This document shows, one piece after another, positions 26,379 to 64,000 of a DNA stretch of 64,000 bases. The position numbers and the translations under genes were made by a program. Under the pieces are notes generated by a model, which saw nothing but the letters and a program-made list of their open reading frames with translations, was not told where the DNA came from and made no database searches. The stretch is from assembly GCA_963826535.1 (NCBI GenBank), contig CAWGXL010000001.1, positions 78,336 through 142,335 of the forward strand. The letters are read 5' to 3'. How positions within the stretch are numbered: the first letter of the stretch is position 1; the number at the start of each line of letters is the position of its first letter. Origin of the DNA: an uncultured bacterium. GTDB lineage: Bacteria; Patescibacteriota; Microgenomatia; Levybacterales; UBA12049.

Positions 26379-26382
26379 CTAG

Positions 26383-27405: not shown

Positions 27406-27418
27406 AGGGTTACTTCTG

Positions 27419-27502: not shown

Positions 27503-27576
27503 AATTAATTAACCAATTCTATCAAAAGGCACGAAACTTGACAACTAAAAAGCGATTTGCCATTATACAATTATAG

Positions 27577-28152
27577 ATGAAAAGGGTAATACTTGGCGTC
27601 GCATTTGTCGCAATTACTCCAATTGCGTTCCTTTTTGCACTCATTTTAACCCTGGCCTCATATCACAAAAACTATATTTCCCAGGCATTCATCCTAAGCC
27701 GCACGAATACAGTCGCGTATGCTGCCCTTCCAACTTCTCAAAATACTTTTTCCGCAAATATCAGTGAACTAGACGGACGTGCTGAAAAAATTAGACAATT
27801 TTTACAAAGATATAACTCGCCACTTGAACCTTACGCACAAGACATTGTAGACGCGGCAGATACATATGGACTCGACCATCGCCTTATTCCGGCAATAGCA
27901 ATGCAGGAATCCAATCTCTGCCTCAAAATTCCTACTGACTCATATAACTGTTGGGGATTCGGAATATATGGTGGCAAAGTCCACAGATTTAGTGATTACA
28001 AAGAAGGAATTTATGCGGTTTCAAAAACTCTGGCAACAAAATATCATAATAAAGGGCTTATAACTCCCGAGCAAATAATGACTAAGTGGACTCCGTCAAG
28101 CAATGGAAGCTGGGCTTTTAGCGTTAATCATTTCATGAACCAACTTAATTAA
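27577..28152 (+). CDS. membrane-anchored glucosaminidase-domain (FlgJ-like) peptidoglycan hydrolase, putative
   Basis: N-terminal TM; AIAMQESNL and YNCWGFGIYG resemble Glucosaminidase-family motifs; low certainty. Confidence 0.45.
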   Translation: MKRVILGVAFVAITPIAFLFALILTLASYHKNYISQAFILSRTNTVAYAALPTSQNTFSANISELDGRAEKIRQFLQRYNSPLEPYAQDIVDAADTYGLDHRLIPAIAMQESNLCLKIPTDSYNCWGFGIYGGKVHRFSDYKEGIYAVSKTLATKYHNKGLITPEQIMTKWTPSSNGSWAFSVNHFMNQLN

Positions 28153-28160
28153 AATACACC

Positions 28161-28189
28161 TTGACAAACCTATAGTTAAGTGATAATAT
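28161..28189 (+). promoter_or_regulatory. candidate sigma70 promoter upstream of tRNA-Leu(TAG)/tig
   Basis: TTGACA (28161-66), 17-nt spacer, TAATAT (28184-89) preceded by TG. Confidence 0.35.
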
Positions 28190-28398
28190 ACCAGGCAGAT
28201 CCTCAGGTGCTTGACCAAAACAAACACGTGGGGATTTATTTTGTTTATACCCCTTTTTAATTGTAAATAAATAGGCTATAATAAATCAGCTTTAATAACT
28301 AATTTCTGCCTTATAATTTTAAATTTGAACTATAAAAAGCAAAATTTTTAAACGTCTGTTCGGCTAATGACTAATAGCAAAAAGCTGAGAGTTAACTT

Positions 28399-28483
28399 GG
28401 GCCTGTGGCGGAACTGGCAGACGCGTACGGTTTAGGACCGTATCCCGAAAGGGGTGGAGGTTCAAGTCCTCTCTGGCCCACCA
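28399..28483 (+). tRNA. tRNA-Leu (anticodon TAG), CCA encoded
   Basis: GGGCCTGTGGCGGAACTGGCAGACGCGTACGGTTTAGGACCGTA + variable arm + GGAGGTTCAAGTCCTCTCTGGCCCACCA; one T-T mismatch in the acceptor stem. Confidence 0.8.
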
Positions 28484-28513
28484 AATCCTTATTTCGTAAG
28501 TCTTAATCTAATT

Positions 28514-29344
28514 ATGAATAAATCAATAGTAGATAAACAACCGGATGGAACTATTAAATTAACAATAACTCTCTCCCAGGAAGATATTAAAAAAACACGT
28601 CAGGAAGTAATCGCTGAAATTTCCAAAAATACCAAAGTAGCCGGTTTCCGTCAAGGTAAAGCACCTACCTCGTTAGTTGAAGAAAAAATTGACTTAGAAA
28701 AAGTAAACGAAGAAATTCTCAAAAAATTGCTTCCGCTTGCATATTCACAAGCTGTACAAACCAACAATATTAAACCAATAATGAACCCCAAAATACATCT
28801 GGAAAAATTAGAACTCGAAAAAGAGTGGGTATTCACAGCATTAACCTGTGAACTGCCGGTTATAGATTTAGGCGCATACAAACAAAATGTACAAAAAATA
28901 ACGGCAAAAAGCAAAATAATAATTCCTGGAAAAGAAGAAAAAAAACCAAGCAGTGAAGAAGTTATGAAAGCTATAGTAGAGAGCACCAAAGCAAAAATTC
29001 CCACAGTTCTCATAGAACAGGAAACTGATAGACTGCTTTCACAGCTCTTAAATGATATTAAAAAACTAGGGCTTAATCTGGATCAGTATTTAGCTTCAAC
29101 AAATAGAACACCCGAAATATTAAGACAGGAAAATTCAAAACGTGCTGAAGAAGATATAAGACTAGAATTTGCTCTGCAGAAAATAGCGGAAACAGAAAAA
29201 ATTACAATTGAACCAAAAGAGATAGAAGAAGCAATCCAAAAATCCACGAACGAAACAGAAAGAGCCAGGCTTGAAAGTAACCGGTATATGCTTGCTGCTA
29301 TTCTCAGACAGCAAAAGACCATTGATTTTTTGCTGAATTTATGA
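28514..29344 (+). CDS. tig: trigger factor, short form (ribosome-binding N-domain + C-terminal arm domain, apparently no PPIase domain)
   Basis: MNKSIVDKQPDGTIKLTITL...AGFRQGKAPTSLVEEK matches the Tig N-terminal domain (GFRxGxxP signature). The track's longer ORF from 28454 overlaps the tRNA, so the start at 28514 is preferred. Confidence 0.7.
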   Translation: MNKSIVDKQPDGTIKLTITLSQEDIKKTRQEVIAEISKNTKVAGFRQGKAPTSLVEEKIDLEKVNEEILKKLLPLAYSQAVQTNNIKPIMNPKIHLEKLELEKEWVFTALTCELPVIDLGAYKQNVQKITAKSKIIIPGKEEKKPSSEEVMKAIVESTKAKIPTVLIEQETDRLLSQLLNDIKKLGLNLDQYLASTNRTPEILRQENSKRAEEDIRLEFALQKIAETEKITIEPKEIEEAIQKSTNETERARLESNRYMLAAILRQQKTIDFLLNL

Positions 29345-29348
29345 TACA

Positions 29349-30071
29349 GTGCGGCTAGACATGAAAGCCTATAAGCAAAAAACACGGCCTGAAATATCGT
29401 CTTACGAACAAGACGATATTAATCTACCCAAAAATATTGCACAGGAATTGGGGAATCAAGGAAAATTAGCCACAGATGACTTTTTTAAGCAACTCCTGGG
29501 TAATGCTGCCAATGATAGTCAATATAATGAAAACGCACAGTCTCATAATGCAAAAGAATCACCAAAGAATGAAAAAGATCCTTCTTCCCTCGGAGGCATA
29601 GTTTTTGAATTAAGAAGCCAAATACTCGGCAATCTATTACCCACTTCTAGTGAGAAAATGTCCAAAAGGGATCGCGAGCCTGGTATAAACTACCACAGTG
29701 AATACTACCAATCCATAACCAGATCCGGTGAAAGACACTCCCAGCGTGAAGTAAACGAGCACAGCAAACAAATCCAATCGATCATGCAAGAACTTAAAAA
29801 ATTAGCTTCTTCAACAAAAGCATTGCAAGTAGAATTTGGATCTCTTGTAGTGGAGCCCCCACCGGCAGATCCCGGCAAATATTATATAAATTTCTTTGAA
29901 TGGATGCTCATTATGATACGCCAATCAAGACAAAAAGTTGAAGACTCAAAGGCTTGGATGGATACTGTACAAGGTAAAAGCAAAAAAATGGGCTACTGGG
30001 GAAAAGCCAAAAAAATGGGCACCACATTCACTCAAGCCAACGAAAGAAATGTCGCAACTTCTACCGGATAA
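29349..30071 (+). CDS. hypothetical charged/low-complexity protein
   Basis: 240-aa ORF rich in K/E/Q/S with no TM; an alternative start at 29361 is possible. Confidence 0.35.
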   Translation: MRLDMKAYKQKTRPEISSYEQDDINLPKNIAQELGNQGKLATDDFFKQLLGNAANDSQYNENAQSHNAKESPKNEKDPSSLGGIVFELRSQILGNLLPTSSEKMSKRDREPGINYHSEYYQSITRSGERHSQREVNEHSKQIQSIMQELKKLASSTKALQVEFGSLVVEPPPADPGKYYINFFEWMLIMIRQSRQKVEDSKAWMDTVQGKSKKMGYWGKAKKMGTTFTQANERNVATSTG

Positions 30072-30198
30072 GTTTATCTGTGCTAATTCACTCCCCGCAC
30101 ATTGTTTTCAAGCCTTCCATTTGTTAAAATTAGTTTTGCTTTAATAGATAGGTATAAATTCTCATTCTAGATACTTAGTTCGCGCCCTTAACGCAATT

Positions 30199-30270
30199 GG
30201 ACTCGTAGCTCAGTGGTAGAGCGCTTCGTTGACATCGAAGAGGTCAGAGGTTCGATACCTCTCGGGTCCA
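30199..30270 (+). tRNA. tRNA-Val (anticodon GAC)
   Basis: GGACTCGTAGCTCAGTGGTAGAGCGCTTCGTTGACATCGAAGAGGTCAGAGGTTCGATACCTCTCGGGTCCA; anticodon loop TTGACAT; no CCA encoded. Confidence 0.85.
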
Positions 30271-30332
30271 CTATAGATTTCTAAAGCACGATTAACATCC
30301 CTCTTTATTTTTTGCTATACTAACTTCAACCT

Positions 30333-51948: not shown

Positions 51949-53283
51949 TTATCTCTCCATTACTCTAACTAAACCTTTAATAGCATCTACCTCAACAAAG
52001 TCTCCATCATGCAATATTTGAGTTATATGCATAACACCAACTATACAAGGAATTTTAAACTCACGGCTAAGTATCGAAACATGCGCAGTCACACCGCCCT
52101 CTTCCGCCACTATTGCAGCTGCCTTATGGATTATTAACAGATAATCAGGAGTGGTATTACAAACAACCAATATATCACCTTCCTGAAATTTAGCAAAATC
52201 AGACTGACCTAGAACAATTTTAACTTTTCCATAAGCTTTCCCCTTTGCAGTTACCCGGCCCTTTAACTCCGTTATTCCCTTTAGCTTTAGATACGTTGAC
52301 CGAAATTCTTCAGCAGAATCTCCTCTTTTAATAACAAATCCCTCAGGCCTGCCAATAAATAATAACTGCTTTCTATCTCTAATTTGATTAAAATCTACCT
52401 TCCTATCTTCAAATACATCTACTATTTCCATCGGCAGGAAATACCTTAATAGCTCACTTTCAATTCCATGCTCGACAGACCACTTATCCCACAACTGATT
52501 AAAATTACCAAGCAACCTATTGATCAAAAATTTAGCCGAATCTTTAAGATATGCTGACTCCTGTGCTAATCGGATGAGAGATTGTTCATCCTTATTATAT
52601 GAATCGAATTTAATTTCTTTGTGATCTACATTTAAATCTTTTATATGTGTATTCTGATCCAACGACTTTAATCGCTTTAACTCGGCTATGTACCAGCTTT
52701 GTTCTTTAGGTTTTTCATTATAATACCCTCCATATAGCCAGCGGTAGCGGTCATAAATCTGCTCTAATATTCGGTCCTCAACTTTATTTGCAGTATGATT
52801 ATTAGCTAAACCAATTAATTCTCGCTCCTCGGCAATCGCAGCAGCCGGCTTAGTTGGTTGGGCAAATAATCCGATCTCCTCATCGCTTAAAAAACTCTTG
52901 AGTTGGGGTAATAACCCATGATCAATACCTCGAAGAATAGTTGGCAGCCGGAATGCTCTTATTACACATTCTATATAATCACGGGCATCAAAATTTTTAT
53001 TTGAATTAAAAAGTTCAGGAATAAAACTTTCAATAGCTAAAATTTCCCCTTCAATGAGATTAATTTTGTCCCGGTAATATTCAACATACTGCTCAAATTC
53101 ATTTTTTTTATAAATCCAATAAAAAGATACTAGATTATTCTTAAGGTCAATTACTTGGCCAACAAAGTGGGGGAGTCTTTTATCAATTAGAGAAAACTGC
53201 TGAGCAAAAATATAGATGGTATATGCATAGCACCATCTCTGACCAATAAGGTCATATCTATATTGACTATAATTAAGACTCAT
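51949..53283 (-). CDS. stand-alone PEP-utilizing-enzyme mobile (phosphohistidine swivel) domain protein with ~340-aa helical N-domain
   Basis: C-terminal GRVTAKGKAYGKVKIV...DYLLIIHKAAAIVAEEGGVTAHVSILSREFKIPCIVGV...DGDFVEVDAIKGLVRV (PEP-utilizers, catalytic His in TAHVSI); N-domain shares a (K/R)YxWL..Y motif with modules of the giant protein. Confidence 0.7.
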   Translation of the reverse strand: MSLNYSQYRYDLIGQRWCYAYTIYIFAQQFSLIDKRLPHFVGQVIDLKNNLVSFYWIYKKNEFEQYVEYYRDKINLIEGEILAIESFIPELFNSNKNFDARDYIECVIRAFRLPTILRGIDHGLLPQLKSFLSDEEIGLFAQPTKPAAAIAEERELIGLANNHTANKVEDRILEQIYDRYRWLYGGYYNEKPKEQSWYIAELKRLKSLDQNTHIKDLNVDHKEIKFDSYNKDEQSLIRLAQESAYLKDSAKFLINRLLGNFNQLWDKWSVEHGIESELLRYFLPMEIVDVFEDRKVDFNQIRDRKQLLFIGRPEGFVIKRGDSAEEFRSTYLKLKGITELKGRVTAKGKAYGKVKIVLGQSDFAKFQEGDILVVCNTTPDYLLIIHKAAAIVAEEGGVTAHVSILSREFKIPCIVGVMHITQILHDGDFVEVDAIKGLVRVMER

Positions 53284-53459
53284 ACACTCTCCTGAACATT
53301 ACGACACCCGCCGCTGCATTTATCTTGACGAAATCACTGTCATTAAGTATATCATTAGTTTCACGCGACACACCTGTCTCCACTTTACTTTTATCACCGA
53401 AAAAGATATTATATTTCTCACTATTTGCCTTCCAATAGAGTGATTAAGGAAAAACAAAT

Positions 53460-54368
53460 ATGACCTTTCTCGAAAAATACAATCTTCTAAAAAAATCTGT
53501 CCCCGTTTCAGCGATAACAATTGACACCGCTACAATTGATTGTGAATATGTCGATTATGCTAATAGAAGTAAAAATTGTTATTACTGTTTTAACGCAAAT
53601 AAACTTGAAAATAGTGTGTATACGATCATGGGATGGGGCAATAAATTAGATGATTGCATTTCAGTAACAGAATCTGAAAAATGTTACCAGTGTGTTGACT
53701 GCACTAAGTGTTTCGATTCTACATATCTAATAGATTGTAATAATTCAACTGAGTGCCATTTTTCAGCGTTTCTAAATTCCTGCACTGATTGTTTCGGCTG
53801 TGTCGCCATAACACACAAAAAGTATTGTATCTTTAATAAACAATATACGAAAGAAGAATATTTTAAAAAGGTTGAGAAGTTAATAAATGAAAAGCCGGAA
53901 AAGATTCTAGCCCAAATGTTTGAATTAAAAAAACAAATACCACATCCGGCAAGCCAACAATTCAACAGCGAAAACTGTCCTTATGGTGACTATGTATATG
54001 ATTCAAAGAATTGTTATTTGAGTTTTAACATATATTATGTTGAAAATTCGGGGTATATTTTTACAAGCGGTACTATTAAAAATTCATGGGATTTATATTT
54101 TTCCGGAGGATATAGGGCAAGAGGAACAATTTCCGACCGGTGTTATGAACAGGTAAATTCCGCAGAATGCTACGACTCTGCATTTCTTGATTCATGCCAA
54201 GGCTGCACAAATTGCTATTACAGCGCAAGTCTCATTAACTGCTCAGACTGCCTCGGGTGTGTTGGATTAAAAAATAAAAAGTATTGCATTTTAAATAATC
54301 AGCTAACCAAACTGTCGTATGAAAAAGCAGTAAAAGAAATTAAAAAAGAGCTTGGATGGAAAGGTTAA
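53460..54368 (+). CDS. cytoplasmic Cys-rich protein with internal tandem duplication (2 x ~140 aa)
   Basis: More than 40 Cys in CxxC/CxxxC spacing; each half ends C(F/L)GCV(A/G).(T/K).KKYCI(F/L)N(K/N)Q(Y/L)TK..Y(F/E)K; no signal peptide. Confidence 0.45.
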   Translation: MTFLEKYNLLKKSVPVSAITIDTATIDCEYVDYANRSKNCYYCFNANKLENSVYTIMGWGNKLDDCISVTESEKCYQCVDCTKCFDSTYLIDCNNSTECHFSAFLNSCTDCFGCVAITHKKYCIFNKQYTKEEYFKKVEKLINEKPEKILAQMFELKKQIPHPASQQFNSENCPYGDYVYDSKNCYLSFNIYYVENSGYIFTSGTIKNSWDLYFSGGYRARGTISDRCYEQVNSAECYDSAFLDSCQGCTNCYYSASLINCSDCLGCVGLKNKKYCILNNQLTKLSYEKAVKEIKKELGWKG

Positions 54369-54641
54369 AGTCTAACCAATGCCCGCCTTAGTATACATTC
54401 CTGATGTAAAAGCCCCCGCCCCGTTTTCCCTCTGCTATAAAAAGGGGTGCGCGAAAATCAACATCATAGTATCTAGAAATAAACGGCGGGAAACAACCCG
54501 GAGCAAAAAATGAACAAAAAAATGGAGAGAAATGCCCTTCCTGCTTGATGATATTCTCCGGCCGCACTTGCCGGATAAACCTATCCTCAGCTCTTATTTT
54601 TATTGCCATTTGAACACTATAATTTCACCGCATTCCCATTA

Positions 54642-56345
54642 TTAACGAGGATTCTGAATCCTTGAATAAACCTGTGTTCCGCCTTTGTAGACTCTTTCTA
54701 TTGTACCTTCTAGCTCTGCTATCTTATCCGCATTATATGTAACATCAGATTCTCCCTCAGCAAGCTTTCTAAGAAGTGAAGGATTGGCAACAATAATATC
54801 CGCCTTATGTCCTGCCTTCATCAAACCTCTTTCATCCCCCTCAAATTGCGCAGTAGTAACCGTGGATGCCAACAGTGCTTGTGTTAAAGATAAACGCTGT
54901 TGCTCCTCAGGGGCATGAGTCGCAAGATATATAGCATAAAGCATGCTATCACTCATTCCTGCTTCACCGTCAGTCCCAAACATCATGGGAATTCCCGCAT
55001 TCACAATCTCCTGATGCGGACAAATCCAGCGTGTCCTATCGCCCAACCGGTCTTTATAAACATAATCCAATAAGAAATTGGGCTGGGGTACCACCCAGAT
55101 ACCCAAATCTTTAACTCTTCTTAATGTTTTCTCAATTGGCAACGGTAATTCAAAATGTTCAATTCTAAATCTTATAGGATCAATTTCACCGCTACGCCCC
55201 TTTTCAATCCATTTCTGCGCAACATTTAGAGACCGTTGAATACCTGCATCGCCAATTGCATGAATTGCCACATTAGACAGTCCATGTTCACGGGCAAGCT
55301 TTATGCCCTCATTCATTTGCCTGACTGTATCATAAAAAATTCCATGACCGCTTTTACCCCCATGTTGATGATCTTCGTATTCCTCGCTCATCTTAGCTGT
55401 ATGAGAACCAAAACTGCCATCAGCAAGAAGTTTAATTCCCGCTATCTGGGGAAATTCTGTTTGATCTAATAATCCCGCCCTCTCTAGTGAAGGCATTAAC
55501 TTTCCTATTTCTACTAACTGTTCCGGCCGCAAATGAAATCGGGTTACAGGAAATTCTAATCCTTTTTCTCCCCATCTTTTTCTACTTCTAAGTGCTGCGA
55601 TAAACTGATTATTTGTTAAAGCTAGTAAGTCATGCATTGACGTAATGCCTTGTGTTAGATACCCCTCGACTTGTGTATCAATTGCCTGCTCAATATTTTC
55701 TATAGAGTATGCAGCCTCGGCAACCTCTATCGCTTTTATGGCATATCCTTCAGAAAAAGTCCCGTCTCTCTTAAAACTACCGGCTGGCTTTTGACTCGAT
55801 TGTTTGGCAAGAATACGCAATTTTTCGCCCATTCTATTAGATATAACCCCTGCATGAAATGAATTGTCAAAAACCAACACATCTCTATTAGGAGCAATCC
55901 TCTCCAAATCAACATTAGTAAGGTCTTTCACCTTGGTTGTATCAAGCCCTATCAAAACTAGAGGTTTTGTTGGGTCTTCTTTCTCTTTAGCCATTCGCCC
56001 AAGTTTTCTAAGCACATCGGCTTTTTCCATACGCGAAACATCACCTGTTCCGACCAACTTTAGGAATGCGAAATCTAACGGATGTTGGTGAGCATCAGTT
56101 AGTCCTGCAAGTACAGCACCGCCTTCGACTCGCTCTCCAACCATATTTCCTTTCTCTTTCCTTTCCGCGTCAAGCCAATCCCGTACATCATCCGGAGGAC
56201 CTACCTTTACAATCCTTCTAATTCTGGGGTCAACCACAACCTGCGTTTCCCGAAGCATCTCACCACCCGAAACAACCGTTTCAGGTGCAAGAAGGGTGAA
56301 ACCTCTATCTCTGCTGGAAATTCCTTGGGATTCTTCTGCACTCAT
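54642..56345 (-). CDS. metal-dependent amidohydrolase (Amidohydro_3-type TIM-barrel hydrolase)
   Basis: GLTDAHQHP metal-binding start, HAIGD and C-terminal FGTDGEAG motifs; 567 aa. Confidence 0.75.
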   Translation of the reverse strand: MSAEESQGISSRDRGFTLLAPETVVSGGEMLRETQVVVDPRIRRIVKVGPPDDVRDWLDAERKEKGNMVGERVEGGAVLAGLTDAHQHPLDFAFLKLVGTGDVSRMEKADVLRKLGRMAKEKEDPTKPLVLIGLDTTKVKDLTNVDLERIAPNRDVLVFDNSFHAGVISNRMGEKLRILAKQSSQKPAGSFKRDGTFSEGYAIKAIEVAEAAYSIENIEQAIDTQVEGYLTQGITSMHDLLALTNNQFIAALRSRKRWGEKGLEFPVTRFHLRPEQLVEIGKLMPSLERAGLLDQTEFPQIAGIKLLADGSFGSHTAKMSEEYEDHQHGGKSGHGIFYDTVRQMNEGIKLAREHGLSNVAIHAIGDAGIQRSLNVAQKWIEKGRSGEIDPIRFRIEHFELPLPIEKTLRRVKDLGIWVVPQPNFLLDYVYKDRLGDRTRWICPHQEIVNAGIPMMFGTDGEAGMSDSMLYAIYLATHAPEEQQRLSLTQALLASTVTTAQFEGDERGLMKAGHKADIIVANPSLLRKLAEGESDVTYNADKIAELEGTIERVYKGGTQVYSRIQNPR

Positions 56346-56350
56346 AATAT

Positions 56351-57310
56351 TTATTTCACATCTATTTTAAGAAGATAGGTGATTAGTGCCATATTGCAAT
56401 ATACCATATCCTCCATAATAGCTTTACCAATCATTCTTGAGTCACTATCTGTCTCTTTAAGAGCAACTAACCGGCCATCAGTTGTCGCGCGCGGTTCACC
56501 GACCAATATCATCGCGTCTTTCCGGACACGAGCCAGTTTTTTATTTGAGAAAGGAACGAATTTTTTATTGAAAGCGTCGACCAGCTTAGGATCTTCTCCT
56601 GATTGCGGAAGCCCTTCTATAATCCACAAGAGGTCAACTTTATCAATGAAATTCTCCAATTTTTCCTGCTTGTAAGTTGAACCGTTTGCCACGACCGTTT
56701 TTCGGATATGATCGGGAAGTTTGAATTCCGGAATTACCGAATCCTCAAAGAATTCTACACCAAACCGGCTCATAACTTTCACGCCGGCTTTTGCCGGGCG
56801 GGATGACTTGCTCATACCAAATAATCCTACCTTGAGACCCTTTAGAGTTCCGCGCTTTTTTATAACTATATTACTGAAAACAATGCCTCCTATAGAGTGC
56901 TCTTCGCCCCCGCACATCGCGTTGATCAAGGGAACCCGGAAACCTTTTTTTGCGAAATCGGTAAGATCCAATTCTTTATGCCGCACCGCCATGACATCGC
57001 ATAAAGGCGCGACTCCATGCAGGGTATCAGATAGATCTTCCTCCCCGGTTTCCAAATACGTTCCTTTAATTCCCGCGATTCCAAACCATCCTCCGCCCAA
57101 CCGTATTATCGCAGCTTGCAAACTTGTGGAAGTACGAGTGCTTTCTTGAAAAAACATCGTCGCGATAACTCTTCCAGGACATAAGTGGGTAAAATTCTTC
57201 CCTGCTTTTATTCCCTTCTCAAATATCGACGCCCTACGAAAAACCTCTTTATATTCCTTAGTGGTCAAATCCTCTGTTCTTGTAAAATGCTTCATATACT
57301 CAACTCTCAA
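56351..57310 (-). CDS. aspartate/ornithine carbamoyltransferase-family protein, divergent
   Basis: Carbamoyl-phosphate-binding STRT motif (FFQESTRTSTSLQAA), the R-H region (MAVRHKE) and an ATCase-like fold order; the HPxQ and HCLP motifs are degenerate. Confidence 0.6.
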   Translation of the reverse strand: MRVEYMKHFTRTEDLTTKEYKEVFRRASIFEKGIKAGKNFTHLCPGRVIATMFFQESTRTSTSLQAAIIRLGGGWFGIAGIKGTYLETGEEDLSDTLHGVAPLCDVMAVRHKELDLTDFAKKGFRVPLINAMCGGEEHSIGGIVFSNIVIKKRGTLKGLKVGLFGMSKSSRPAKAGVKVMSRFGVEFFEDSVIPEFKLPDHIRKTVVANGSTYKQEKLENFIDKVDLLWIIEGLPQSGEDPKLVDAFNKKFVPFSNKKLARVRKDAMILVGEPRATTDGRLVALKETDSDSRMIGKAIMEDMVYCNMALITYLLKIDVK

Positions 57311-57314
57311 TTAA

Positions 57315-58796
57315 TTAGTTTTTATTATACATCTCTTTAATAATTTTTACCACACCTTCATTCGCATCCACCTCCACCAAATCCCCATCCCTCAAAACTT
57401 TAGTAGCAATTTTCGTGCCCACTATGCAAGGTTTTCTTAACTCGCGGCTGACAATAGCCGCATGGGAAGTCAATCCTCCCGTGTCTGTAATCACCGCCAT
57501 TGATCTTTTCATAATAAATACATACTCGGGAGTGGTCATTGGAGCTACCAAAATACTATTCTCTCGGAAATGATCCGCGTCTTTTGGATCTAAGATTACC
57601 TGAACAAAACCGGTCAGCTTGGACACACTACCGCGACTTGCGACTACCCCTCTCAATTCAGTGATATTTTGACCGGCCTTTTCCTCCGAATAAAGACTCC
57701 AGTAATTTTCTGCTTGATCCAGCATAATTTCTGTCACAGCTCCATCAGCGCACAGGAAACCAAAAGCTCTTCTTCTGCGATCAAGAAGAGAAGTTACGTC
57801 TTGTTTCTTATTGATTATTCGTTCAATCTCTAATTCTCGAAGATTTAAAAGATCATCTTTCTTGTACTTATAGCGGCGGCAAACTTCGTTCAGCATCAGA
57901 TTCTTATAATGAAGATATATCCAAACTTCTCTCTTGCGTGCGTCTTGCCATTCAATTCCGGCCACAATCGCTGCGGCCATTGCCGTAATTCTTTGGGGAA
58001 GCTTATATTTCTCTGTCAGGGCAATTTTCCTCTCCTTTGTATGTGCTCGCTTCTCTTCAAATTCTGCTCTCGGAGATGCCCCTTGCTCTCTCTTTTTCCT
58101 GGAAAAGTAATCAACATCAACTATTTCCACTCCGTCGTAACTATTTTTCAACCAAAAATATTTTTTTTGGTGCCCTAGAATATCATTGGTTTCAGCCAAA
58201 TCTATTTCCTCCTCCTGATAAAAAGAAGGCTTTTCAGGTGCGGTCAACACTTCCATCATATGCTGCCGCTCCTTATCATTGGAAGTGAAAGCTTTCAATT
58301 CTTCCTCCAGAATAGGCAAAGAGCCATAATTTCCGAGCTCCGGCACTGTCACATATATCCAGAAGTTAATAGTCAGTACATGAAAACTATGCCAGAGACG
58401 TGCGAATTCCGTTTGAGTTAGTTGGGGTAAATGTAATCGTTCAATCTTCTGTTCGGCCCTATGTAATTTCTTCAGATGTTGAATATAATTTCTATACAAT
58501 CCTCTGCGTTTCTTGGTTGGAAGCATATATTTCAGGAACACGCTCCCGCCGTATCGATGCATATCCCGCCATTCGTTCACAAAGACCATACGCTTATCCC
58601 GATAAAGCGCCAGACCTTTCGGCCATTTCTCACCCTTAAATGCCTTCTGGAAATAATTTCGGTTGAAAATCCCCTCAAGAAAGTCGGCCGTAAAAAATAT
58701 CCGTATCGGGGCAGGCCCCCAACGAAAGAGTTCGGCATTAGGGTCGAGTGGAAAATTCTGTTGTTTCATCTTCATATTTTTATGTACATTATTCAT
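57315..58796 (-). CDS. stand-alone PEP-utilizing-enzyme mobile-domain protein (module paralog)
   Basis: C-terminal ...GVVASRGSVSKLTGFVQVIL...VAPMTTPEYVFIMKRSMAVITDTGGLTSHAAIVSRELRKPCIVGTKIATKVLRDGDLVEVDANEGVVKII; N-domain KKYFWLKNSY motif as in the giant protein modules. Confidence 0.75.
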   Translation of the reverse strand: MNNVHKNMKMKQQNFPLDPNAELFRWGPAPIRIFFTADFLEGIFNRNYFQKAFKGEKWPKGLALYRDKRMVFVNEWRDMHRYGGSVFLKYMLPTKKRRGLYRNYIQHLKKLHRAEQKIERLHLPQLTQTEFARLWHSFHVLTINFWIYVTVPELGNYGSLPILEEELKAFTSNDKERQHMMEVLTAPEKPSFYQEEEIDLAETNDILGHQKKYFWLKNSYDGVEIVDVDYFSRKKREQGASPRAEFEEKRAHTKERKIALTEKYKLPQRITAMAAAIVAGIEWQDARKREVWIYLHYKNLMLNEVCRRYKYKKDDLLNLRELEIERIINKKQDVTSLLDRRRRAFGFLCADGAVTEIMLDQAENYWSLYSEEKAGQNITELRGVVASRGSVSKLTGFVQVILDPKDADHFRENSILVAPMTTPEYVFIMKRSMAVITDTGGLTSHAAIVSRELRKPCIVGTKIATKVLRDGDLVEVDANEGVVKIIKEMYNKN

Positions 58797-58800
58797 CTTG

Positions 58801-61800
58801 CTACAGTATTTTCACCACCCCATGATTCCCTTTTACCTCAACCAAATCCCCATCCTTCAAAACTTTTGTTGCATTTCGTGTCCCTATCACGCAAGGCTTG
58901 CCCATCTCCCGGGCGATAATAGCTGCATGACATGTAATGCCGCCCTCATCAGTCACAAACGCAGCCGCCTTTTTCATAGCCGGCATATACTCTGGCCGCG
59001 TCATCGAAGTAACAAGAATATCTCCTTCTTCGACTTTTGCAAGCGAATTTACAGAGAGACATACTTTCACTCTCCCCACCACATTTCCTAGCGAAGCTGC
59101 CTCTCCATGAAGATCCCCCTGTGTTTTCACTTGCTTTTGTGCAAACATTGGCGCTAGCTGCTCATACAACGCCCCGCTAGCCACATCAACCCGTCCCTTA
59201 GTTTTAAGGTAAAGCCCGCCCTTTCTTCTCTCCGCGAGTATTGGCGCAAGCGCTTTGATCGCAGCCATATTTTGATTTAATTCAAATGGTGTAAGATATC
59301 GTAGTAAATTTATAGAAATATTAACCCTCCTGGAAAGCTCTTCCAATAACAGGTCTAGCCACTCTATAGCCATCAGAATATTCTTTTTCCGCTCGTCCTG
59401 CCAGAGGGTCAAAAACTCAAGCGCCTCAAGCTGCACACCCAGTTCTTTTGGTAGTCCAAGTTTTTTAAGCAGCAAACCTTTCTGCTTCAGCAGATTAGTA
59501 TTGATAGATTTTTCATGTTTAATTTCATTTGCTTCTTTTAAAACATCATCGTATGTAAGAGGTTTTCTTCCCAAATATGAATTACGAAGCCAATAATAAT
59601 TTTTCAAATAATTTTTAATTAGAATATCAGGATCTTTGGCAGATGCAATCCTAACCAAATCATCATATGCCTCTTGCGCGAATGATTTTGCTAGGGGAGT
59701 AGTGAGAAGTACAAATGCCGCGTTTAGTTTCTTGGAATCTTCAATGTATTTCCTAAGCTCTGCTTTAATTTTTTTATCCGCGACAAGTACAAAAGGCTCA
59801 ATTATGTGGCTTATACAAACGCTATCACTCATTGCCCTCGAGCTTTCTCGCAAGAGGCTTAGAAACTCGCCATCACTCAAGGGAATTAATGCTGTTTTTT
59901 GAATTTTTGTAAATAATCGCTGCGATTTTTGCATAATGAGCTCATGCTTTTTCTTTATGCCCACAAAATAATTAGGGTTTTGTTTAAGTTTCGCCAAAAG
60001 TTCATTAGCCATTCGTTTCAGATCTGCCATTCTATATAACATATACCCGTAATCGTCTTTTATATCAAACACGAAACACGTATACGCTATTCCTGCAAAA
60101 TCAGCTGCTGAGAGAATAAGAAGTGGAGTCACGTTCAACCCCTGCGGATACCACCGTTCGGCAGACAACACTTTCATAGTCCGAACTATTTCTTCATTAC
60201 CCGAACCTTTCTTGCGCGCGTCACTCGCCCTCTCCAAAACCCTCACAGCCCCCGCATCCGCATCCACTTCCACCAAATCCCCATCTTTCAAAACCTGAGT
60301 CGCGATCTTCGTGCCAATAATACAAGGCTTTCTCATTTCGCGGGCAATAATGGCTGCGTGACTTATCACACCCCCTTCGTCAGTTACAAAAGCAGCCGCT
60401 TTTTCCATAGCTGCTGTAAAATTGGGCGTCGTCATAGTCGCAACAAGAATATCACCCTTTCCAACCCGCATACTGTCCTCATTTGTCAAAACGATTTTTG
60501 CCAGACCGCGCACAACCCCTTTGCATGCCACCAAACCGGTAATCTCATTGACAGATTTTTTGCTCCTGTTAAAAACACTCCGTTTTTGTACATACCTACG
60601 CGCATCTTCTCCCGCCACCAAGATTACTTTTTCACCAAAATAAATTAGTGACTCTTTTTTTCTATCTCCGAGCTTGCTCTGAATATCAAACTTACCGTGC
60701 AGTGCATCCCTAACCTCAAGCGGCGAAAAGTAGAGCAAATCATGGTATGATACCCCAAGATGTCTTGCCGCAGATACTAGAAATGGTTTGAAGATTGCCG
60801 ATGCATGATTGAAAAAATCTGCCCGTTCAGTTCGAAGAAAAACAATAGTTCGGATCTGCTTGGCCAACATTCTTTCTTCATTCGTAAATCGTTTTATAAG
60901 TTGGCCTATTCTCCTTTCTCTTTCATGTCGTCTTTTACTTCTTTCAGTAAACGCTTGTAGGGCTTTATCTCGTGCCTGGCTTTCAAGCCGCTGGAGCACA
61001 TCTTCCTTACTCCACCAATCTCCTATAAAAAAACGGATTGCCAACCAACCGTATTTATCTGCATGTTTCGCTGCAAGCCTCTGCTTTTCCTTCTCGGTTT
61101 TAAATTTGTGAATCGCCAGTTTCAAAAAATCTTCTTGTTCTTTGTCTGTAGCCGTTAATTGATTCGGATTTGTAAGTAATTCCAAAACGATATTTTTTTC
61201 TTCCTCGCTCTTAGAATATTTTTCAGCTAATTCTCTTGTAATTTCCATTTCCGGTTTCTCAAAAAACGCGATAGAATAATAAACGCAGTAATCTTTCGCC
61301 TGTTCATAAAATTTTGCGATTACTTCACCTGAAACCCTTTTTTCTAAATCCCCTGAGAAACTTTTTCTCAAATCCCCTGCGAACTTAACCAAGTTATTGC
61401 CGGAAATTATACAGTCCGTTAGAATAGTATTAATATAATCAATATTCTCGCGCTTAATTTTTTCTTTTACGCGTGCGGTAAAATCATCAATATCCGATTT
61501 AACATTGAAAAAATCGTAATTATGTTTTTCAGAATCAGAGGTACGTACAAACCACCTGACAGGCTTATTCAGCTTGAATTTCTTTATAAGACCCGCTTCA
61601 TCAATTAATCCGCCTACAACAATAGCCGAAGCAAAATAAGGCTCAATTCTCTGACCGAAATAAACAATATCTTCATTTTTCACATCTGGAATCTCATTCA
61701 ATACCTTTGCGCCAGCCTCACCACCGTCAGCCCTCTCCAGTAACCTCACCACACCTTCGTCAGCATCCACTTCCACCAAATCACCGTCATGCAAAACCTT

Positions 61801-64000
61801 TGTAGCAATCTTTGTGCCGAGGATACATGGAATACCAAGCTCTCTCGAAACAATGGCTGCATGGGAAGTAAGCCCTCCTTCATCTGTCACAAAAGCCCCC
61901 GCTATCTTCATAGCCGGAGTCATTTCCGGACGCGTCATTGATGAAACGAGAACATCCCCGGAGGATACTTTACCTATGTCATTACTTTTCAAGACAATCT
62001 TCACTCTTCCTTGCATCTTTCCTGTTTGCGCTACAATTCCACTAAATGTTTCCACTACTTTCACATCTTCCTGGAGATGATTATAGAAAAAATATGCTCC
62101 GTCGCCGGAAAGAATAACCTTTTCCTCTTTACTTTCCACCGCGACTATCATCTTTTTGCGCTTTTCAATTTCTTGCTCTGACAAAAAAGTATGAGTCTTT
62201 ATTGCTTTAGATATTTCTCCCCAAGAGTAGAACCAAAGATGCGATAATGGCTCCCTAAACTTTTGACTCACCTTTTCTAAGAAAAGCTTATGATAATGAT
62301 TTGCGCGAAGAACAAATGCTTTTCGCACGTCCTGCATTTCTGCAAACTTCTCTACAATTCCTATATATTCTTTCAGTAATAACGACGGATGATATTTTTT
62401 AAACAAATCTTCTTTTTTTCGCTTAGTGTTCTCTGGGGCAGTTTCAAGTTCATATACTTTTACTTTTATTTCAGCTTCCGGCAACCTTGCGGTTTTAAAC
62501 ACTTTCTCCCTGAAGAAATCTTCGTCAAGCACTTGAATGTCAGCATAGTTATTCTGTATCCAAAACCACTTTTGTTGATGCTTCAGAAGTAGTTTATCAA
62601 AATGAGATGTTTTAGATTGAATCGCTAGATCCAAGCGATCAATTTCCTCTTGAGTAATAAATGAATGCACAACCGGCGAAGTAAGCAGCGCTGCTGTTGC
62701 ATTATAATCCAGGCCATATTTTTTCACATACGCTTCAAGCTCAGGTGTGATCCACTGTTCCGGCTGAAAGCCGCATGCTTCCTGTATGGCACAAGCCAGC
62801 GCATACTCAAAAATATATTCTTCCACAAAATCCTGATAAGCGCTCAAAATGACTGGGAAATTATCCGCCGCAAGCGCAGACTCAAGTACGCTTATCTTTC
62901 CATTGAGCCGCTGACACGAATCCCGCCAGTCATGATAGTGTTTTTGAAGATAATTTTTATTTTTCTTGAGATTTGCAAAATAATGATTACGTAGCTTAGT
63001 AAATTCATCGGGCAGGTAGTAAATATCCCAATAATCATTTTGCAGAGCAGAAATGTGCAGTTTATAATAAAAACCGGAATAATCTCCCCACTTGTTCCAT
63101 AACAATTGAACAAAATCAGCTGGATAAAATGTTGCATGAAGACCCTTGTGAATTAATGGCGGATGAATATCATATTTTGCAATTAGATATCTTTCTATTT
63201 TTTGAGACGTAGTATCTGCATTCTCATGCGTATCCTTTTTAAGCGTCGTAATCGGCCTGCTCTGTGTGATATAAAACTTCCCTTTTTCAAAAGCCCACTC
63301 AATATCACAGGGAAATCCATAATGCTTTTCAATCTTCAAGATAAGCTCAGTCAGTTCAAGAATTTGCCCATCTGTGAGTTTTTGCTGGCTTCCTTTTTCA
63401 GGAAGAATAGATTGCCATTGGTTATTTGATTGTTTAGAGTTCTGGATTCCCGCCTCCGCGGGAATTACGGAAGAGGAACGATAAAGTCCTCGCTCTTGTG
63501 TCACAACATGTCTTTCAATAACTCTTCGAGGGTTTTTCTCGACCACATATGAGTCAGGTGTGATCTGTCCGGATACAATTGCCTCACCCAATCCGTACCC
63601 TGCCTCAATGATAAGCTGGTTTCGGTCTTCCGTAACCGGGTGAACTGAAAATGCAATGCCTGACTTTTCGCTTTGTATCATCTTTTGTACCACAACTGCA
63701 ACAGATATTTTCTGCGAGTGGAGTTGTTTTTCAAATCTATAAAAAATTGCCCGGGGTGTAAAAAGTGAAGCCCAGCATTTTTGTACATTGATAAGTAGAG
63801 TTTTATCTGTCGTGTTAAGAAAACTATCCAGTTGTCCGGCCCATGCCGCAGAACTTGAGTCTTCCGCTGTTGCAGAAGAACGAACAGCCACATATTCAGC
63901 TCCCAGTTTTCTAAATTCTTGTACTATCTCCCTTGCAATCTGATCCGGCATCTTTGCGCTTTGTATTAAAGCCTGGATTTTCTCAGATGCATATTCAACC
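58801..64000 (-). CDS. giant PEP-synthase/rifampin-phosphotransferase-like protein: ATP-grasp (PPDK_N) domain + three tandem [helical domain + phosphohistidine swivel domain] modules; 5' end beyond window
   Basis: N-terminal ...VAVRSSATAEDS...GFPCDIEWAFEKGKFYITQSRPIT (PPDK_N C-terminal signature). Three PEP-utilizers domains: DEGGLTSHAAIVSRELGIPCILGT, DEGGVISHAAIIAREMRKPCIIGT and DEGGITCHAAIIAREMGKPCVIGT, each followed by DGDLVEV. The frame stays open from the Met at 63951 to the window edge (…VEYASEKIQALIQSAK-M…). Confidence 0.8.
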   Translation of the reverse strand, partial: VEYASEKIQALIQSAKMPDQIAREIVQEFRKLGAEYVAVRSSATAEDSSSAAWAGQLDSFLNTTDKTLLINVQKCWASLFTPRAIFYRFEKQLHSQKISVAVVVQKMIQSEKSGIAFSVHPVTEDRNQLIIEAGYGLGEAIVSGQITPDSYVVEKNPRRVIERHVVTQERGLYRSSSVIPAEAGIQNSKQSNNQWQSILPEKGSQQKLTDGQILELTELILKIEKHYGFPCDIEWAFEKGKFYITQSRPITTLKKDTHENADTTSQKIERYLIAKYDIHPPLIHKGLHATFYPADFVQLLWNKWGDYSGFYYKLHISALQNDYWDIYYLPDEFTKLRNHYFANLKKNKNYLQKHYHDWRDSCQRLNGKISVLESALAADNFPVILSAYQDFVEEYIFEYALACAIQEACGFQPEQWITPELEAYVKKYGLDYNATAALLTSPVVHSFITQEEIDRLDLAIQSKTSHFDKLLLKHQQKWFWIQNNYADIQVLDEDFFREKVFKTARLPEAEIKVKVYELETAPENTKRKKEDLFKKYHPSLLLKEYIGIVEKFAEMQDVRKAFVLRANHYHKLFLEKVSQKFREPLSHLWFYSWGEISKAIKTHTFLSEQEIEKRKKMIVAVESKEEKVILSGDGAYFFYNHLQEDVKVVETFSGIVAQTGKMQGRVKIVLKSNDIGKVSSGDVLVSSMTRPEMTPAMKIAGAFVTDEGGLTSHAAIVSRELGIPCILGTKIATKVLHDGDLVEVDADEGVVRLLERADGGEAGAKVLNEIPDVKNEDIVYFGQRIEPYFASAIVVGGLIDEAGLIKKFKLNKPVRWFVRTSDSEKHNYDFFNVKSDIDDFTARVKEKIKRENIDYINTILTDCIISGNNLVKFAGDLRKSFSGDLEKRVSGEVIAKFYEQAKDYCVYYSIAFFEKPEMEITRELAEKYSKSEEEKNIVLELLTNPNQLTATDKEQEDFLKLAIHKFKTEKEKQRLAAKHADKYGWLAIRFFIGDWWSKEDVLQRLESQARDKALQAFTERSKRRHERERRIGQLIKRFTNEERMLAKQIRTIVFLRTERADFFNHASAIFKPFLVSAARHLGVSYHDLLYFSPLEVRDALHGKFDIQSKLGDRKKESLIYFGEKVILVAGEDARRYVQKRSVFNRSKKSVNEITGLVACKGVVRGLAKIVLTNEDSMRVGKGDILVATMTTPNFTAAMEKAAAFVTDEGGVISHAAIIAREMRKPCIIGTKIATQVLKDGDLVEVDADAGAVRVLERASDARKKGSGNEEIVRTMKVLSAERWYPQGLNVTPLLILSAADFAGIAYTCFVFDIKDDYGYMLYRMADLKRMANELLAKLKQNPNYFVGIKKKHELIMQKSQRLFTKIQKTALIPLSDGEFLSLLRESSRAMSDSVCISHIIEPFVLVADKKIKAELRKYIEDSKKLNAAFVLLTTPLAKSFAQEAYDDLVRIASAKDPDILIKNYLKNYYWLRNSYLGRKPLTYDDVLKEANEIKHEKSINTNLLKQKGLLLKKLGLPKELGVQLEALEFLTLWQDERKKNILMAIEWLDLLLEELSRRVNISINLLRYLTPFELNQNMAAIKALAPILAERRKGGLYLKTKGRVDVASGALYEQLAPMFAQKQVKTQGDLHGEAASLGNVVGRVKVCLSVNSLAKVEEGDILVTSMTRPEYMPAMKKAAAFVTDEGGITCHAAIIAREMGKPCVIGTRNATKVLKDGDLVEVKGNHGVVKIL

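Follow-up and report, generated by a model that had tools for sequence, protein, structure and literature searches.

Stand-alone RPH-like acceptor modules beside a single ATP-grasp domain: a probable one-to-many dikinase locus in an uncultured patescibacterium

Introduction

How might proteins that carry a phosphohistidine swivel domain, but no ATP-grasp domain of their own, be charged with phosphate, and to what acceptor would they pass it on? This question is raised by a 64,000-nucleotide stretch of DNA from an uncultured bacterium of the Levybacterales (hereafter the window), in which two such proteins, A493 and B444, flank genes for a carbamoyltransferase-family protein and a metal-dependent hydrolase, close to a giant multidomain protein. 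The original prediction, made from the DNA letters, held that a partner supplied in trans would be needed to phosphorylate them, most simply the ATP-grasp domain of the giant protein, and that the genes serve a dedicated small-molecule transformation.

Organization of the locus

The lengths and coordinates first proposed for A493 and B444 are exact (Table 1), and the carbamoyltransferase-family (OTC-like) and Amidohydro_3 genes do lie between them on the same strand (Pfam). The giant open reading frame runs from 58801 to beyond 64000, with its frame open to base 63999; because it exceeds the window end, approximately 76 N-terminal residues of the ATP-grasp domain, and anything upstream of them, are outside view. 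Only 4 nt separate the giant gene from A493, about 19 nt A493 from the OTC-like gene (the likely start of which is the ATG at 57295, the same as in P0126), and 5 nt the latter from the Amidohydro_3 gene. B444 is a separate transcription unit, since a Cys-rich reading frame on the opposite strand intervenes between it and this run of genes; a candidate promoter upstream of B444 scores no better than chance. Directly downstream of B444, Pfam recognizes a GAF-ANTAR regulator. No riboflavin genes are found within the window.

Table 1. Features of the locus and their positions in the window
Feature	Position	Strand	Evidence
ATP-grasp (PPDK_N) domain of the giant protein	63202..63999	-	Pfam PPDK_N, E 3.5e-69, profile positions 77-325/328
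Giant module 1, helical + swivel His, GGLTSHAAI	61720..63201	-	PEP-utilizers match; swivel residues 654-755
Giant module 2, helical + swivel, GGVISHAAI	60214..61719	-	BLASTP; swivel residues 1154-1257
Giant module 3, helical + swivel, GGITCHAAI, with stop codon	58801..60213	-	BLASTP; swivel residues 1635-1732
Stand-alone module A493 (493 aa), RPH-type helical + swivel	57315..58796	-	
OTC-like, divergent ATCase-fold protein, 319 aa	56351..57310	-	Pfam OTCace_N only
Amidohydro_3 metal-dependent hydrolase, 567 aa	54642..56345	-	Pfam Amidohydro_3, E 2.7e-41
Cys-rich ORF, 302 aa	53460-54368	+	
Stand-alone module B444 (444 aa), more divergent helical + swivel	51949..53283	-	

The stand-alone modules as acceptor half-enzymes

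The sole Pfam match above cut-off in A493 is a PEP-utilizers swivel domain at residues 411-481 (E 2.2e-25), and B444 carries the same domain at residues 366-437 (E 2.8e-23). Neither protein contains PPDK_N; PEP-utilizers_C (PF02896) is absent from A493, B444 and the giant protein, and PF05524 gave no Pfam match. The giant reading frame combines one PPDK_N with three PEP-utilizers stretches, and a phmmer search of all window ORFs returned five swivel domains, no more and no fewer, together with a single ATP-grasp domain, the only one in the locus that binds nucleotide. The original description of A493 and B444 as swivel-His modules with neither an ATP-grasp nor a PEP/pyruvate domain, in a locus of five homologous modules and a single ATP-grasp, is thereby confirmed.

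The motifs TDTGGLTSHAAI and AEEGGVTAHVSI are found in the stand-alone module sequences, and the catalytic histidines of both proteins are intact, as had been claimed. The swivel motif of A493 reads T437-D-T-G-G-L-T-S-H445, with the codon of His445 at 57462-57464, and that of B444 reads A-E-E-G-G-V-T-A-H401 (His401 codon at 52081-52083), with Ala in place of the first Thr/Ser.

BLASTP aligns A493 and B444 to the modules of the giant protein at 28-35% identity over 320-484 residues (E 1e-35 to 4e-45), and, as judged from these alignments, the homology reaches well past the swivel domain, which bears out the view that they are the same helical-plus-swivel module. Giant module 1 matches A493 at 35% over 322 aa (E 4e-45), module 2 matches A493 at 29% over 356 aa and B444 at 29% over 322 aa, and module 3 matches A493 at 28% over 484 aa; the closest relative of module 3, at 43% identity, is a stand-alone module of another locus (L077). 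In A493 the helical domain occupies approximately residues 1-375 and is followed by the swivel phosphohistidine domain. Structure models are confident to the C-terminus, from residue 11 in A493 and throughout in B444. By sequence, the swivel domain of the modules comes nearest to archaeal PEP synthases (E 1e-21). The fold of the helical domain is that of the substrate-binding (RIF-binding) domain of rifampin phosphotransferase (RPH), so that every module amounts to a complete acceptor half-enzyme. A493 and B444 are thus intact, stand-alone substrate-binding and phosphohistidine halves of RPH-like kinases. The term phospho-carrier, by which they were first described, undersells a module that also holds an RPH-fold domain.

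A large module family in CPR bacteria and DPANN archaea

CPR bacteria and DPANN archaea together hold over 3,000 homologues of approximately 470 aa; those of full length (448-490 aa) are plentiful, cover 92-100% of the module and come from many phyla. The family is therefore large, spans ultra-small bacteria and archaea and has apparently not been described in the literature so far. Modules exist in split form, fused one-to-one with an ATP-grasp domain, or joined into giant polyproteins, some of which exceed 3,000 aa. With the A493 helical domain alone as query, 457 clusters were recovered, most of them of 470-490 aa; other clusters comprise proteins of 720-790 aa in which the helical domain begins at residue 260-318, behind an ATP-grasp domain, or proteins with several modules and a length above 1,000 aa.

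Eighty related loci contain 308 modules and 29 PPDK_N units, with a maximum of one ATP-grasp per locus, and in 76 of the 80 the module and ATP-grasp genes are all arranged on one strand. Up to eleven modules accompany a single ATP-grasp in other genomes, compared with five here. At least 306 of the 308 modules retain the catalytic His, and one exception has Tyr at this position. The original prediction would have been in difficulty had such modules never been found with an ATP-grasp partner; scored within 10 kb of modules, PPDK_N is present in 29 of the 80 loci, in 22 as a stand-alone ORF of about 286-390 aa that adjoins modules and in seven as a fusion.

For 261 of 269 modules the best BLAST match falls in another genome. 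Mean identity between modules is 18.5% for helical domains and 52-54% for swivel domains, a disparity that fits one donor serving many acceptors, and swivel identity is only marginally higher within a locus (0.536) than between loci (0.524). The most conserved helical residues of the 269 modules include D285, R287 (90%), K288, R308 and R341; according to the family alignment, B444 has Ala for R287 and Glu for R308. Genes for flavokinase, riboflavin synthase and lumazine synthase are embedded in the arrays of several other lineages, and array genes often include phosphatase-type (HAD, HD) and phosphotransacetylase (PTA_PTB) members.

Partner genes

The OTC-like protein scores 109.6 bits against the NCBIfam ATCase model (cut-off 237) and has its closest solved structure in the archaeal ATCase 1ml4 (150 bits), to which it is similar over its full length. 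It retains the phosphate-binding S-T-R-T motif and equivalents of E. coli R105, H134 and R167 (Arg110, His138 and Arg171), but has lost the fifth Arg of S-T-R-T-R. In addition, H-P-x-Q is changed to E-H-[ST]-[IL]-[AG], with loss of the Gln, a near-invariant E-G-L-P-Q stands where ATCases have the aspartate-binding R-x-Q, and a T-D-G-R insert is new. The second-substrate domain PF00185 finds no Pfam match in this family, which forms a small, discrete, CPR-only clade separated from true ATCases by a large score gap. The OTC-like genes consistently neighbour dikinase modules rather than pyrimidine genes: wherever a locus offers more than 3 kb of flank, they adjoin modules, an ATP-grasp or the amidohydrolase, and in most related loci the amidohydrolase gene follows. 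The Amidohydro_3 protein reaches 143 bits (cut-off 29.7) and has its N-terminal H-x-H metal motif as AHQHP; its sole PDB relatives are the uncharacterised hydrolases 3icj and 3igh, and no characterised close relative was found among NCBIfam models and the PDB. A CPR-specific, module-linked OTC-like family speaks for the dedicated small-molecule pathway originally proposed, for which carbamoylation and ring hydrolysis would be the putative chemistry.

A probable system of one ATP-grasp domain and many acceptors

On balance, we consider it probable that these genes form a one-to-many system of small-molecule dikinases of the RPH/HpeHI type. The N-terminal ATP-grasp of the giant protein would bind ATP and transfer the beta-phosphate to a swivel His, releasing AMP and Pi; charging would take place in cis for the three modules of the giant protein and in trans for His445 of A493 and His401 of B444. 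Each charged swivel domain would then dock back onto its own helical domain, which would bind the acceptor, and the phosphate would pass to a hydroxyl of this small molecule. The OTC-like and Amidohydro_3 proteins may be dedicated partners that make, or further convert, one acceptor or phosphorylated product. Given how far the helical domains have diverged, each of the five modules most likely recognizes an acceptor of its own. The idea of a partner in trans gains support from the 22 stand-alone PPDK_N proteins, the fused forms of 720-790 aa and the precedent of the HpeHI, CreHI and PpsAB systems; we infer charging in trans by the giant's ATP-grasp, as well as the direction of the reaction and the identity of the substrates. 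Against this reading weigh the near-equal swivel identity within and between loci, the position of B444 outside the operon, its departures at R287 and R308 and the scarcity of ATP-grasp genes within 10 kb of solitary modules.

Modules without an ATP-grasp might instead be transphosphorylases, which move phosphate between small molecules via the swivel His. HpeH alone performs such a transfer, from 4-phosphoacetophenone to acetovanillone (PMC12167813), and modules outnumber ATP-grasp units approximately 10:1. Furthermore, 23 of 27 solitary-module loci have no PPDK_N within 10 kb, and with an ATP-grasp at this distance in the other 4, a neighbouring partner is not universal; HAD, HD and phosphotransacetylase genes and, here, the carbamoyl-phosphate-type site could supply or consume phospho-donors. 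However, the helical domain is repeatedly fused straight behind an ATP-grasp, 13 of the 22 loci that are flanked in full and hold an array of at least three modules also hold one ATP-grasp, the ATP-grasp of the window is encoded in the same operon, 4 nt upstream of A493, and the swivel domain is conserved (52%) to a degree consistent with a shared docking partner. We therefore hold this alternative to be unlikely.

Dikinase reactions are reversible, as exemplified by PPDK, which runs in reverse in some anaerobes. In such a mainly reverse mode, each module could take phosphate from a different energy-rich phospho-metabolite while the ATP-grasp remakes ATP from AMP and Pi or PPi, and the locus would then be an energy-scavenging device for organisms of minimal metabolism. 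The CPR and DPANN hosts are compatible with this, as are the acyl-phosphate genes in the arrays (PTA_PTB; the ATCase-like protein with S-T-R-T and Arg110). Yet the characterised RPH-type relatives all consume ATP and act on hydroxyl acceptors (PMC12167813, PMC4844700), and the phosphate esters that alcohols and phenols form are in general too energy-poor, which makes reverse operation rather improbable.

Still more doubtful is a role as phospho-relay or regulatory carriers of the Enzyme I/NPr type, with the helical domain as a protein-interaction scaffold. A swivel domain is common to the modules and to PTS Enzyme I, and a GAF-ANTAR gene does stand next to B444; however, such a regulator occurs in none of the 80 related loci, the embedded partner genes encode enzymes rather than regulators, and the helical domain has the RPH fold, not that of the Enzyme I HPr-binding domain, with both PF05524 and PF02896 absent. 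Finally, A493 and B444 might be remnants of full-length PpsA/RPH-like genes, either as 5'-truncated pseudogenes, a possibility named at the outset, or as fragments left by assembly. Nothing but the missing ATP-grasp speaks for this notion, which is effectively refuted by thousands of equal-length homologues, uninterrupted ORFs with the catalytic His in place, confident structure models and the position of the giant's stop codon 4 nt upstream of A493, which leaves no room for a lost domain.

Returning to the dikinase reading, the riboflavin-type genes in the arrays of other lineages make cofactor or metabolite salvage the best lead to the substrates. More tentatively, and as a possibility to which we give less than even weight, CPR bacteria and DPANN archaea may share a hub-and-spoke mode of phosphorylation, in which one ATP-grasp serves up to a dozen anciently diversified modules acting on many scavenged metabolites or cofactor precursors. 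If so, phosphorylation would trap or activate these compounds, and the system, with its own ATCase-derived enzyme and amidohydrolase and its recurrence near flavokinase and riboflavin/lumazine synthase genes, would represent a major, so far uncharacterised part of what these ultra-small symbionts do metabolically, as well as a new, previously unrecognised dikinase architecture.

Comparison with known dikinases

With PEP synthase and PPDK the locus shares the PPDK_N and PEP-utilizers domains. It differs in lacking the PEP/pyruvate TIM-barrel (PF02896), in a swivel domain that is C-terminal instead of central and, for A493 and B444, in the absence of an ATP-grasp from the same polypeptide. PEP-synthase NCBIfam models score 97-107 bits, over the swivel region only, against cut-offs of 740 (TIGR01418) and 598 (NF005057). 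The usual database label, 'phosphoenolpyruvate synthase', is wrong for these proteins, given the missing PF02896 and scores so far below the cut-offs.

A wider RPH superfamily of small-molecule dikinases was reportedly outlined by Stogios et al. in 2016. The modules resemble RPH (PDB 5HV1/5FBS) in the fold of the helical binding domain and in the C-terminal swivel His that follows. RPH, however, is a single chain of approximately 865 aa with one acceptor domain and 15% identity to the modules, whereas three binding-plus-swivel units share one ATP-grasp in the giant protein, and A493 and B444 have no ATP-grasp; nothing points to rifampin as a substrate of the modules. The RPH equivalog NF041857 (cut-off 999) gives 62.3 bits for A493 and 48.9 bits for B444; positions 653-863 of the model align to residues 273-485 of A493, a segment that contains D285-x-R287-K288. 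The roles of the RPH domains, His825 and a block of Arg666, Glu667 and Lys670 have been described (PMC4844700), and this block falls in the part of the RPH model that aligns with the A493 segment holding D285-x-R287-K288, a candidate counterpart in which the order of charged residues differs.

PpsA/HpeH-type proteins are presumably those assigned to the PRK08296-type NCBIfam models (approximately 570-630 aa), the best of which, NF006153, reaches 89.5 bits here (cut-off 578) and matches the swivel region only. HpeHI of Rhodococcus, CreHI of Corynebacterium and PpsAB of Thauera/Aromatoleum have been proven by experiment to be two-component dikinases: an ATP-grasp protein loads the phosphate onto a second protein that combines substrate-binding and swivel domains. 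PpsAB is phenylphosphate synthase, and HpeHI-type systems act on phenolics in aromatic catabolism (PMC12167813). A493 and B444 are likewise separate acceptor proteins with a binding domain and a swivel His but no ATP-grasp, the T/S-x-x-G-G-x-x-x-H motif recurs in A493, and both groups are homologues of RPH. In those systems, however, one separate ATP-grasp protein of approximately 340-360 aa serves one acceptor of approximately 70 kDa, whereas the modules described here measure 444-493 aa, the sole ATP-grasp of the window is fused to the giant protein while related loci have 22 stand-alone PPDK_N ORFs of about 286-390 aa next to modules, and the family as a whole is characterized by many modules per ATP-grasp, by possible polyproteins, by CPR and DPANN hosts and by other accessory genes.

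A predicted split dikinase with stand-alone acceptor modules

The core interpretation of the original prediction stands: judged from their sequences, the two stand-alone modules of this locus, A493 (493 amino acids, catalytic His445) and B444 (444 amino acids, catalytic His401), are predicted to be intact acceptor half-enzymes of a dikinase of the rifampin phosphotransferase (RPH)/HpeHI type, most probably charged in trans by the single ATP-grasp domain of the adjacent giant protein. A module is here a helical domain followed by a C-terminal swivel (PEP-utilizers) phosphohistidine domain. That both lack an ATP-grasp domain was borne out by Pfam and by phmmer searches of every open reading frame (ORF) in the window: each carries one C-terminal PEP-utilizers domain (E 2.2e-25 in A493 and 2.8e-23 in B444) and no other Pfam domain, and the histidine motifs quoted earlier, GGLTSHAAI and GGVTAHVSI, are present in the sequence. 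The giant protein contains one PPDK_N (ATP-grasp) domain (E 3.5e-69; its N-terminus lies beyond the window end) and three PEP-utilizers swivel domains. Over the whole window phmmer found exactly five swivel domains and one ATP-grasp domain, and A493 and B444 align to the giant's three modules with 28-35% identity over 320-484 residues (E down to 4e-45), far past the swivel domain, in agreement with the proposed five homologous modules. The sole Pfam match of the 319-aa protein (hereafter OTC-like) is OTCace_N; the 567-aa protein matches Amidohydro_3.

Genes of the dikinase locus and its immediate neighbours (window positions)
Feature	Position	Strand	Remark
Giant ORF	beyond base 64000 down to 58801	minus	extends past window end
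A493, 493-aa ORF	58796-57315	minus	start 4 nt past the giant's stop
OTC-like, 319-aa ORF	57310-56351	minus	probable ATG at 57295
Amidohydrolase, 567-aa ORF	56345-54642	minus	start 5 nt past OTC-like gene
Cys-rich 302-aa ORF	53460-54368	plus	convergent with amidohydrolase gene
B444, 444-aa ORF	53283-51949	minus	
GAF-ANTAR (RNA-binding antiterminator) regulator	51699-51010	minus	249 nt downstream of B444 gene

The Cys-rich ORF consists of two similar halves of ~150 aa, each rich in C-x-x-C and C-x-D-C spacings, and has no Pfam, NCBIfam or PADLOC match. Neither this ORF nor the GAF-ANTAR regulator was found in 80 related loci; they are therefore not counted within the system, of which the regulator is probably not a part. 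A promoter and terminator scan around the B444 gene performed no better than chance, and PADLOC gave no match to defence systems. The other window genes are bacterial and CPR-typical (RecG, a class A PBP, bacterial PheST, trigger factor, IF3 and type IV pilus genes). At 24450-26023 on the minus strand, an archaeal-type phosphopantothenate synthetase (PF02006, E 6e-69) lies directly beside a GHMP-kinase-family gene, a pair that resembles the pathway by which archaea make 4'-phosphopantothenate, here in a bacterial (CPR) genome. A loose group of five tRNA genes (Val-TAC, Leu-GAG, Leu-CAG, Leu-TAG and Val-GAC) is scattered among protein-coding genes at 24177-30271.

A large family in CPR bacteria and DPANN archaea

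Scored homologues of A493 number 3,229. Nearly all of the top 120 measure 455-496 aa, with a query coverage of 92-99%, and these 120 are distributed over Patescibacteria (Magasanikbacteria, Paceibacterota, Gracilibacteria and others) and DPANN archaea (Woesearchaeota, Nanoarchaeota). B444 belongs to a rarer and more divergent branch, with full-length relatives of 448-484 aa at 29-39% identity; its match to the A493 family profile spans 301 columns and has a probability of 99.8%. The helical domain of A493 alone (378 aa) retrieved 457 clusters at 50% identity among 1.84 billion representatives, with lengths of mostly 470-490 aa; the others include multi-module proteins longer than 1,000 aa, and proteins of 720-790 aa in which the domain starts at residue 260-318, which places it behind an ATP-grasp domain.

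Homologues of A493 that bear any name are called 'PEP-utilizing enzyme' or 'phosphoenolpyruvate synthase'. The identification of A493 and B444 as PEP synthases was rejected, as was a reading of the modules as PTS Enzyme I. The possibility raised at the outset that they are truncated pseudogenes was likewise discarded, given a large family of full-length homologues of both.

Whether from CPR bacteria or from DPANN archaea, orthologues of the 493-aa module show 42-48% identity (e.g. loci L005, L007 and L009 versus L001 and L002), which suggests that the dikinase-module system has moved between the two domains of life.

Module arrays and a shared ATP-grasp domain

A genome scan with one genome per species yielded 576 confirmed loci, of which the best 80 (L001-L080) were analysed with flanks of up to 10 kb on each side, using ORF calling and phmmer for the census. 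They contain 308 modules (median 3 and maximum 11 per locus) alongside 29 PPDK_N domains, at most one in any locus; stand-alone modules thus do co-occur with ATP-grasp partners, and a complete lack of such co-occurrence was what the original prediction had named as its refutation. Twenty-two of these PPDK_N domains form stand-alone ORFs of ~286-390 aa and seven are fused to modules. Where a module is solitary, an ATP-grasp domain lies within 10 kb in only 4 of 27 loci, a figure that refers to the flanks searched. In 76 of the 80 loci one strand carries all system genes, and the stop codon of one gene often overlaps the start codon of the next. The modules may also be joined into polyproteins: a dikinase of 3,376 aa with one ATP-grasp and seven swivel domains (L027, 1613-11740), another of 2,396 aa with one ATP-grasp and four (L031, 2747-9934), and one of at least 2,937 aa with eight swivel domains that runs into the contig end (L017, 1-8811).

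In four near-identical contigs from different samples (L081, L082, L100 and L101), the stand-alone PPDK_N is split, two overlapping ORFs of ~172 and ~148 aa taking the place of one (e.g. L081, 14290-15239); this reflects a conserved frameshift or split, or else decay of the gene. The PPDK_N of L083 is a single 317-aa ORF.

Of 269 modules, 261 have their top BLAST match in another genome and not in their own array, indicating that the paralogues are ancient. Mean identity is 18.5% in the helical domain and 52-54% in the swivel domain, essentially equal within and between loci; for the window modules the corresponding ranges are 13-21% and 42-61%. Such a conserved swivel and divergent helical domain are expected if all modules dock the same kind of charging unit and bind different acceptors. 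Co-adaptation to a shared ATP-grasp domain received no support, the difference between swivel identity within a locus (0.536) and between loci (0.524) being negligible.

A carbamoyltransferase-like gene and an amidohydrolase accompany the arrays

The OTC-like protein, of divergent ATCase fold, belongs to a family of ~98 clusters (36-75% identity) in which every named member is from Patescibacteria, and which is set apart from a true ATCase by a sharp score gap, from 209 to 94 bits. Among solved structures, archaeal ATCases are closest to the OTC-like protein. In E. coli ATCase numbering, the alignment shows that S-T-R-T, Arg105, His134 and Arg167 are kept, whereas S-T-R-T-R has lost its fifth Arg and H-P-x-Q its Gln; the aspartate-binding R-x-Q segment is altered to a near-invariant E-G-L-P-Q, and a T-D-G-R insert has been added. 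The chemistry could be carbamoyl transfer, or the retained phosphate-binding site could be used for another phospho-ligand. The amidohydrolase has the H-x-H motif, and its only PDB relatives are uncharacterised.

Contexts of the OTC-like gene were collected from the genome set (L002, L061, L080), by exact look-ups (L081-L085) and by a metagenome scan (L086-L102). Wherever the flank exceeds ~3 kb, this gene adjoins swivel modules, PPDK_N or an Amidohydro_3 gene. Modules are present in 19 of the 22 loci found through this gene (L081-L102), the three exceptions being contigs of 2-3 kb, and in most of these loci the amidohydrolase comes after the OTC-like gene. From this constant linkage we conclude that the pair is a dedicated accessory of the dikinase arrays, which supports the earlier idea of a dedicated small-molecule pathway. 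Two variants were seen: an amidohydrolase flanked by two OTC-like genes (L098, 8553-12199) and two tandem amidohydrolases (L093, 10988-14418). The module beside the OTC-like gene was considered as a conserved A493 orthologue and rejected, at 27-35% identity.

Embedded genes as substrate leads

Several unrelated CPR lineages have genes for flavokinase, riboflavin synthase (Lum_binding) and lumazine synthase within or abutting their arrays, and the gene boundaries often overlap; none of these genes occurs in the window itself. In L083, four modules are followed by the OTC-like gene, flavokinase, RibE, RibH (riboflavin genes at 10956-12417) and then the ATP-grasp gene, with overlapping junctions; the four contigs with a split PPDK_N have the same order plus an amidohydrolase after the OTC-like gene. 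The three riboflavin genes lie between two module blocks in L046 (Moranbacteria, 11377-13294), accompany the OTC-amidohydrolase pair in L061 (19044-20470), and are in or abut the array in L020 (1797-3015). Directly after the last module of L045 (a Woesearchaeota MAG, 19548-20840) and L057 (9274-10572; a MAG labelled Gammaproteobacteria) lies an EamA-transporter-flavokinase fusion of ~424 aa, whose coupling of transport to phosphorylation suggests metabolite trapping.

Other recurrent array genes in L001-L080 (e.g. in L055, L058, L065, L056, L053 and L078) encode a HAD hydrolase, an HD domain, Fic/DOC and a phosphate acetyl/butyryl transferase (phosphotransacetylase). At least four further array-embedded families have no Pfam match; several carry an initial 'R-H' motif that recalls histidine phosphatases, an identity that Pfam did not confirm at E up to 10. 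Taken as a lead and not as a result, the riboflavin and other embedded genes point to phosphorylation of scavenged metabolites or cofactor precursors by the modules.

Significance

A large part of microbial diversity falls within the CPR bacteria and DPANN archaea, whose genomes are tiny and contain many genes without an assigned function. Up to eleven ~1.5-kb paralogues side by side, or polyproteins of more than 3,000 aa, for one chemistry are striking in such genomes, and this investment implies an important function. The current labels mislead metabolic reconstructions, for example by suggesting gluconeogenesis; the predicted acceptor-module identity offers a concrete and testable mechanism instead, and the substrates can be approached through the ATCase-derived family, with its strict linkage, and through the recurrent riboflavin genes. 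One shared ATP-grasp domain suggests modular coupling of a single ATP-activating unit to many substrates, which is relevant to enzymology and biocatalysis.

No description of CPR/DPANN module arrays was found in the literature searched, whose coverage was incomplete; the sole mention of CPR there was a resistome survey listing 'rph' matches. Nor was any account found in the searchable literature of an organisation that combines one ATP-grasp with many modules, of the polyprotein versions, of the system's restriction to CPR and DPANN organisms or of the dedicated ATCase-derived partner. The split small-molecule dikinase is itself an already known kind of system.

Comparison with known dikinases

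In RPH, the antibiotic is bound by the helical domain, the swivel His825 takes up the β-phosphate of ATP at the ATP-grasp site and delivers it to the drug, and Arg666, Glu667 and Lys670 of the binding domain assist phosphate transfer (PMC4844700). By analogy, the helical domain of the modules is predicted to be the substrate-binding domain and not a passive scaffold. Its best-conserved residues across 269 modules include D285, R287 (90%), K288 (80%), R308 and R341. Positions 653-863 of the NCBIfam RPH model align to A493 residues 273-485, a span that holds the D-x-R-K motif of A493 and the catalytic block of RPH, residue equivalence being putative; beyond the swivel domain, no NCBIfam or Pfam model reaches its cut-off in A493 or B444. 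The catalytic His is kept in at least 306 of 308 modules, the only clear loss being its replacement by Tyr in L037 (2-1510; GSVTSYAAE).

Experimentally characterised two-component dikinases are HpeHI, CreHI and phenylphosphate synthase PpsAB, in which an ATP-grasp protein of ~40 kDa and a substrate-binding-plus-swivel protein of ~70 kDa are both required; HpeI shows homology to RPH's ATP-grasp domain, and HpeH to its rifampin-binding and swivel domains (PMC12167813). Mutation of the conserved His abolishes activity, and HpeH without its partner still shifts phosphate between two substrates (PMC12167813). A493 and B444 share this HpeH-type architecture, but are shorter than HpeH.
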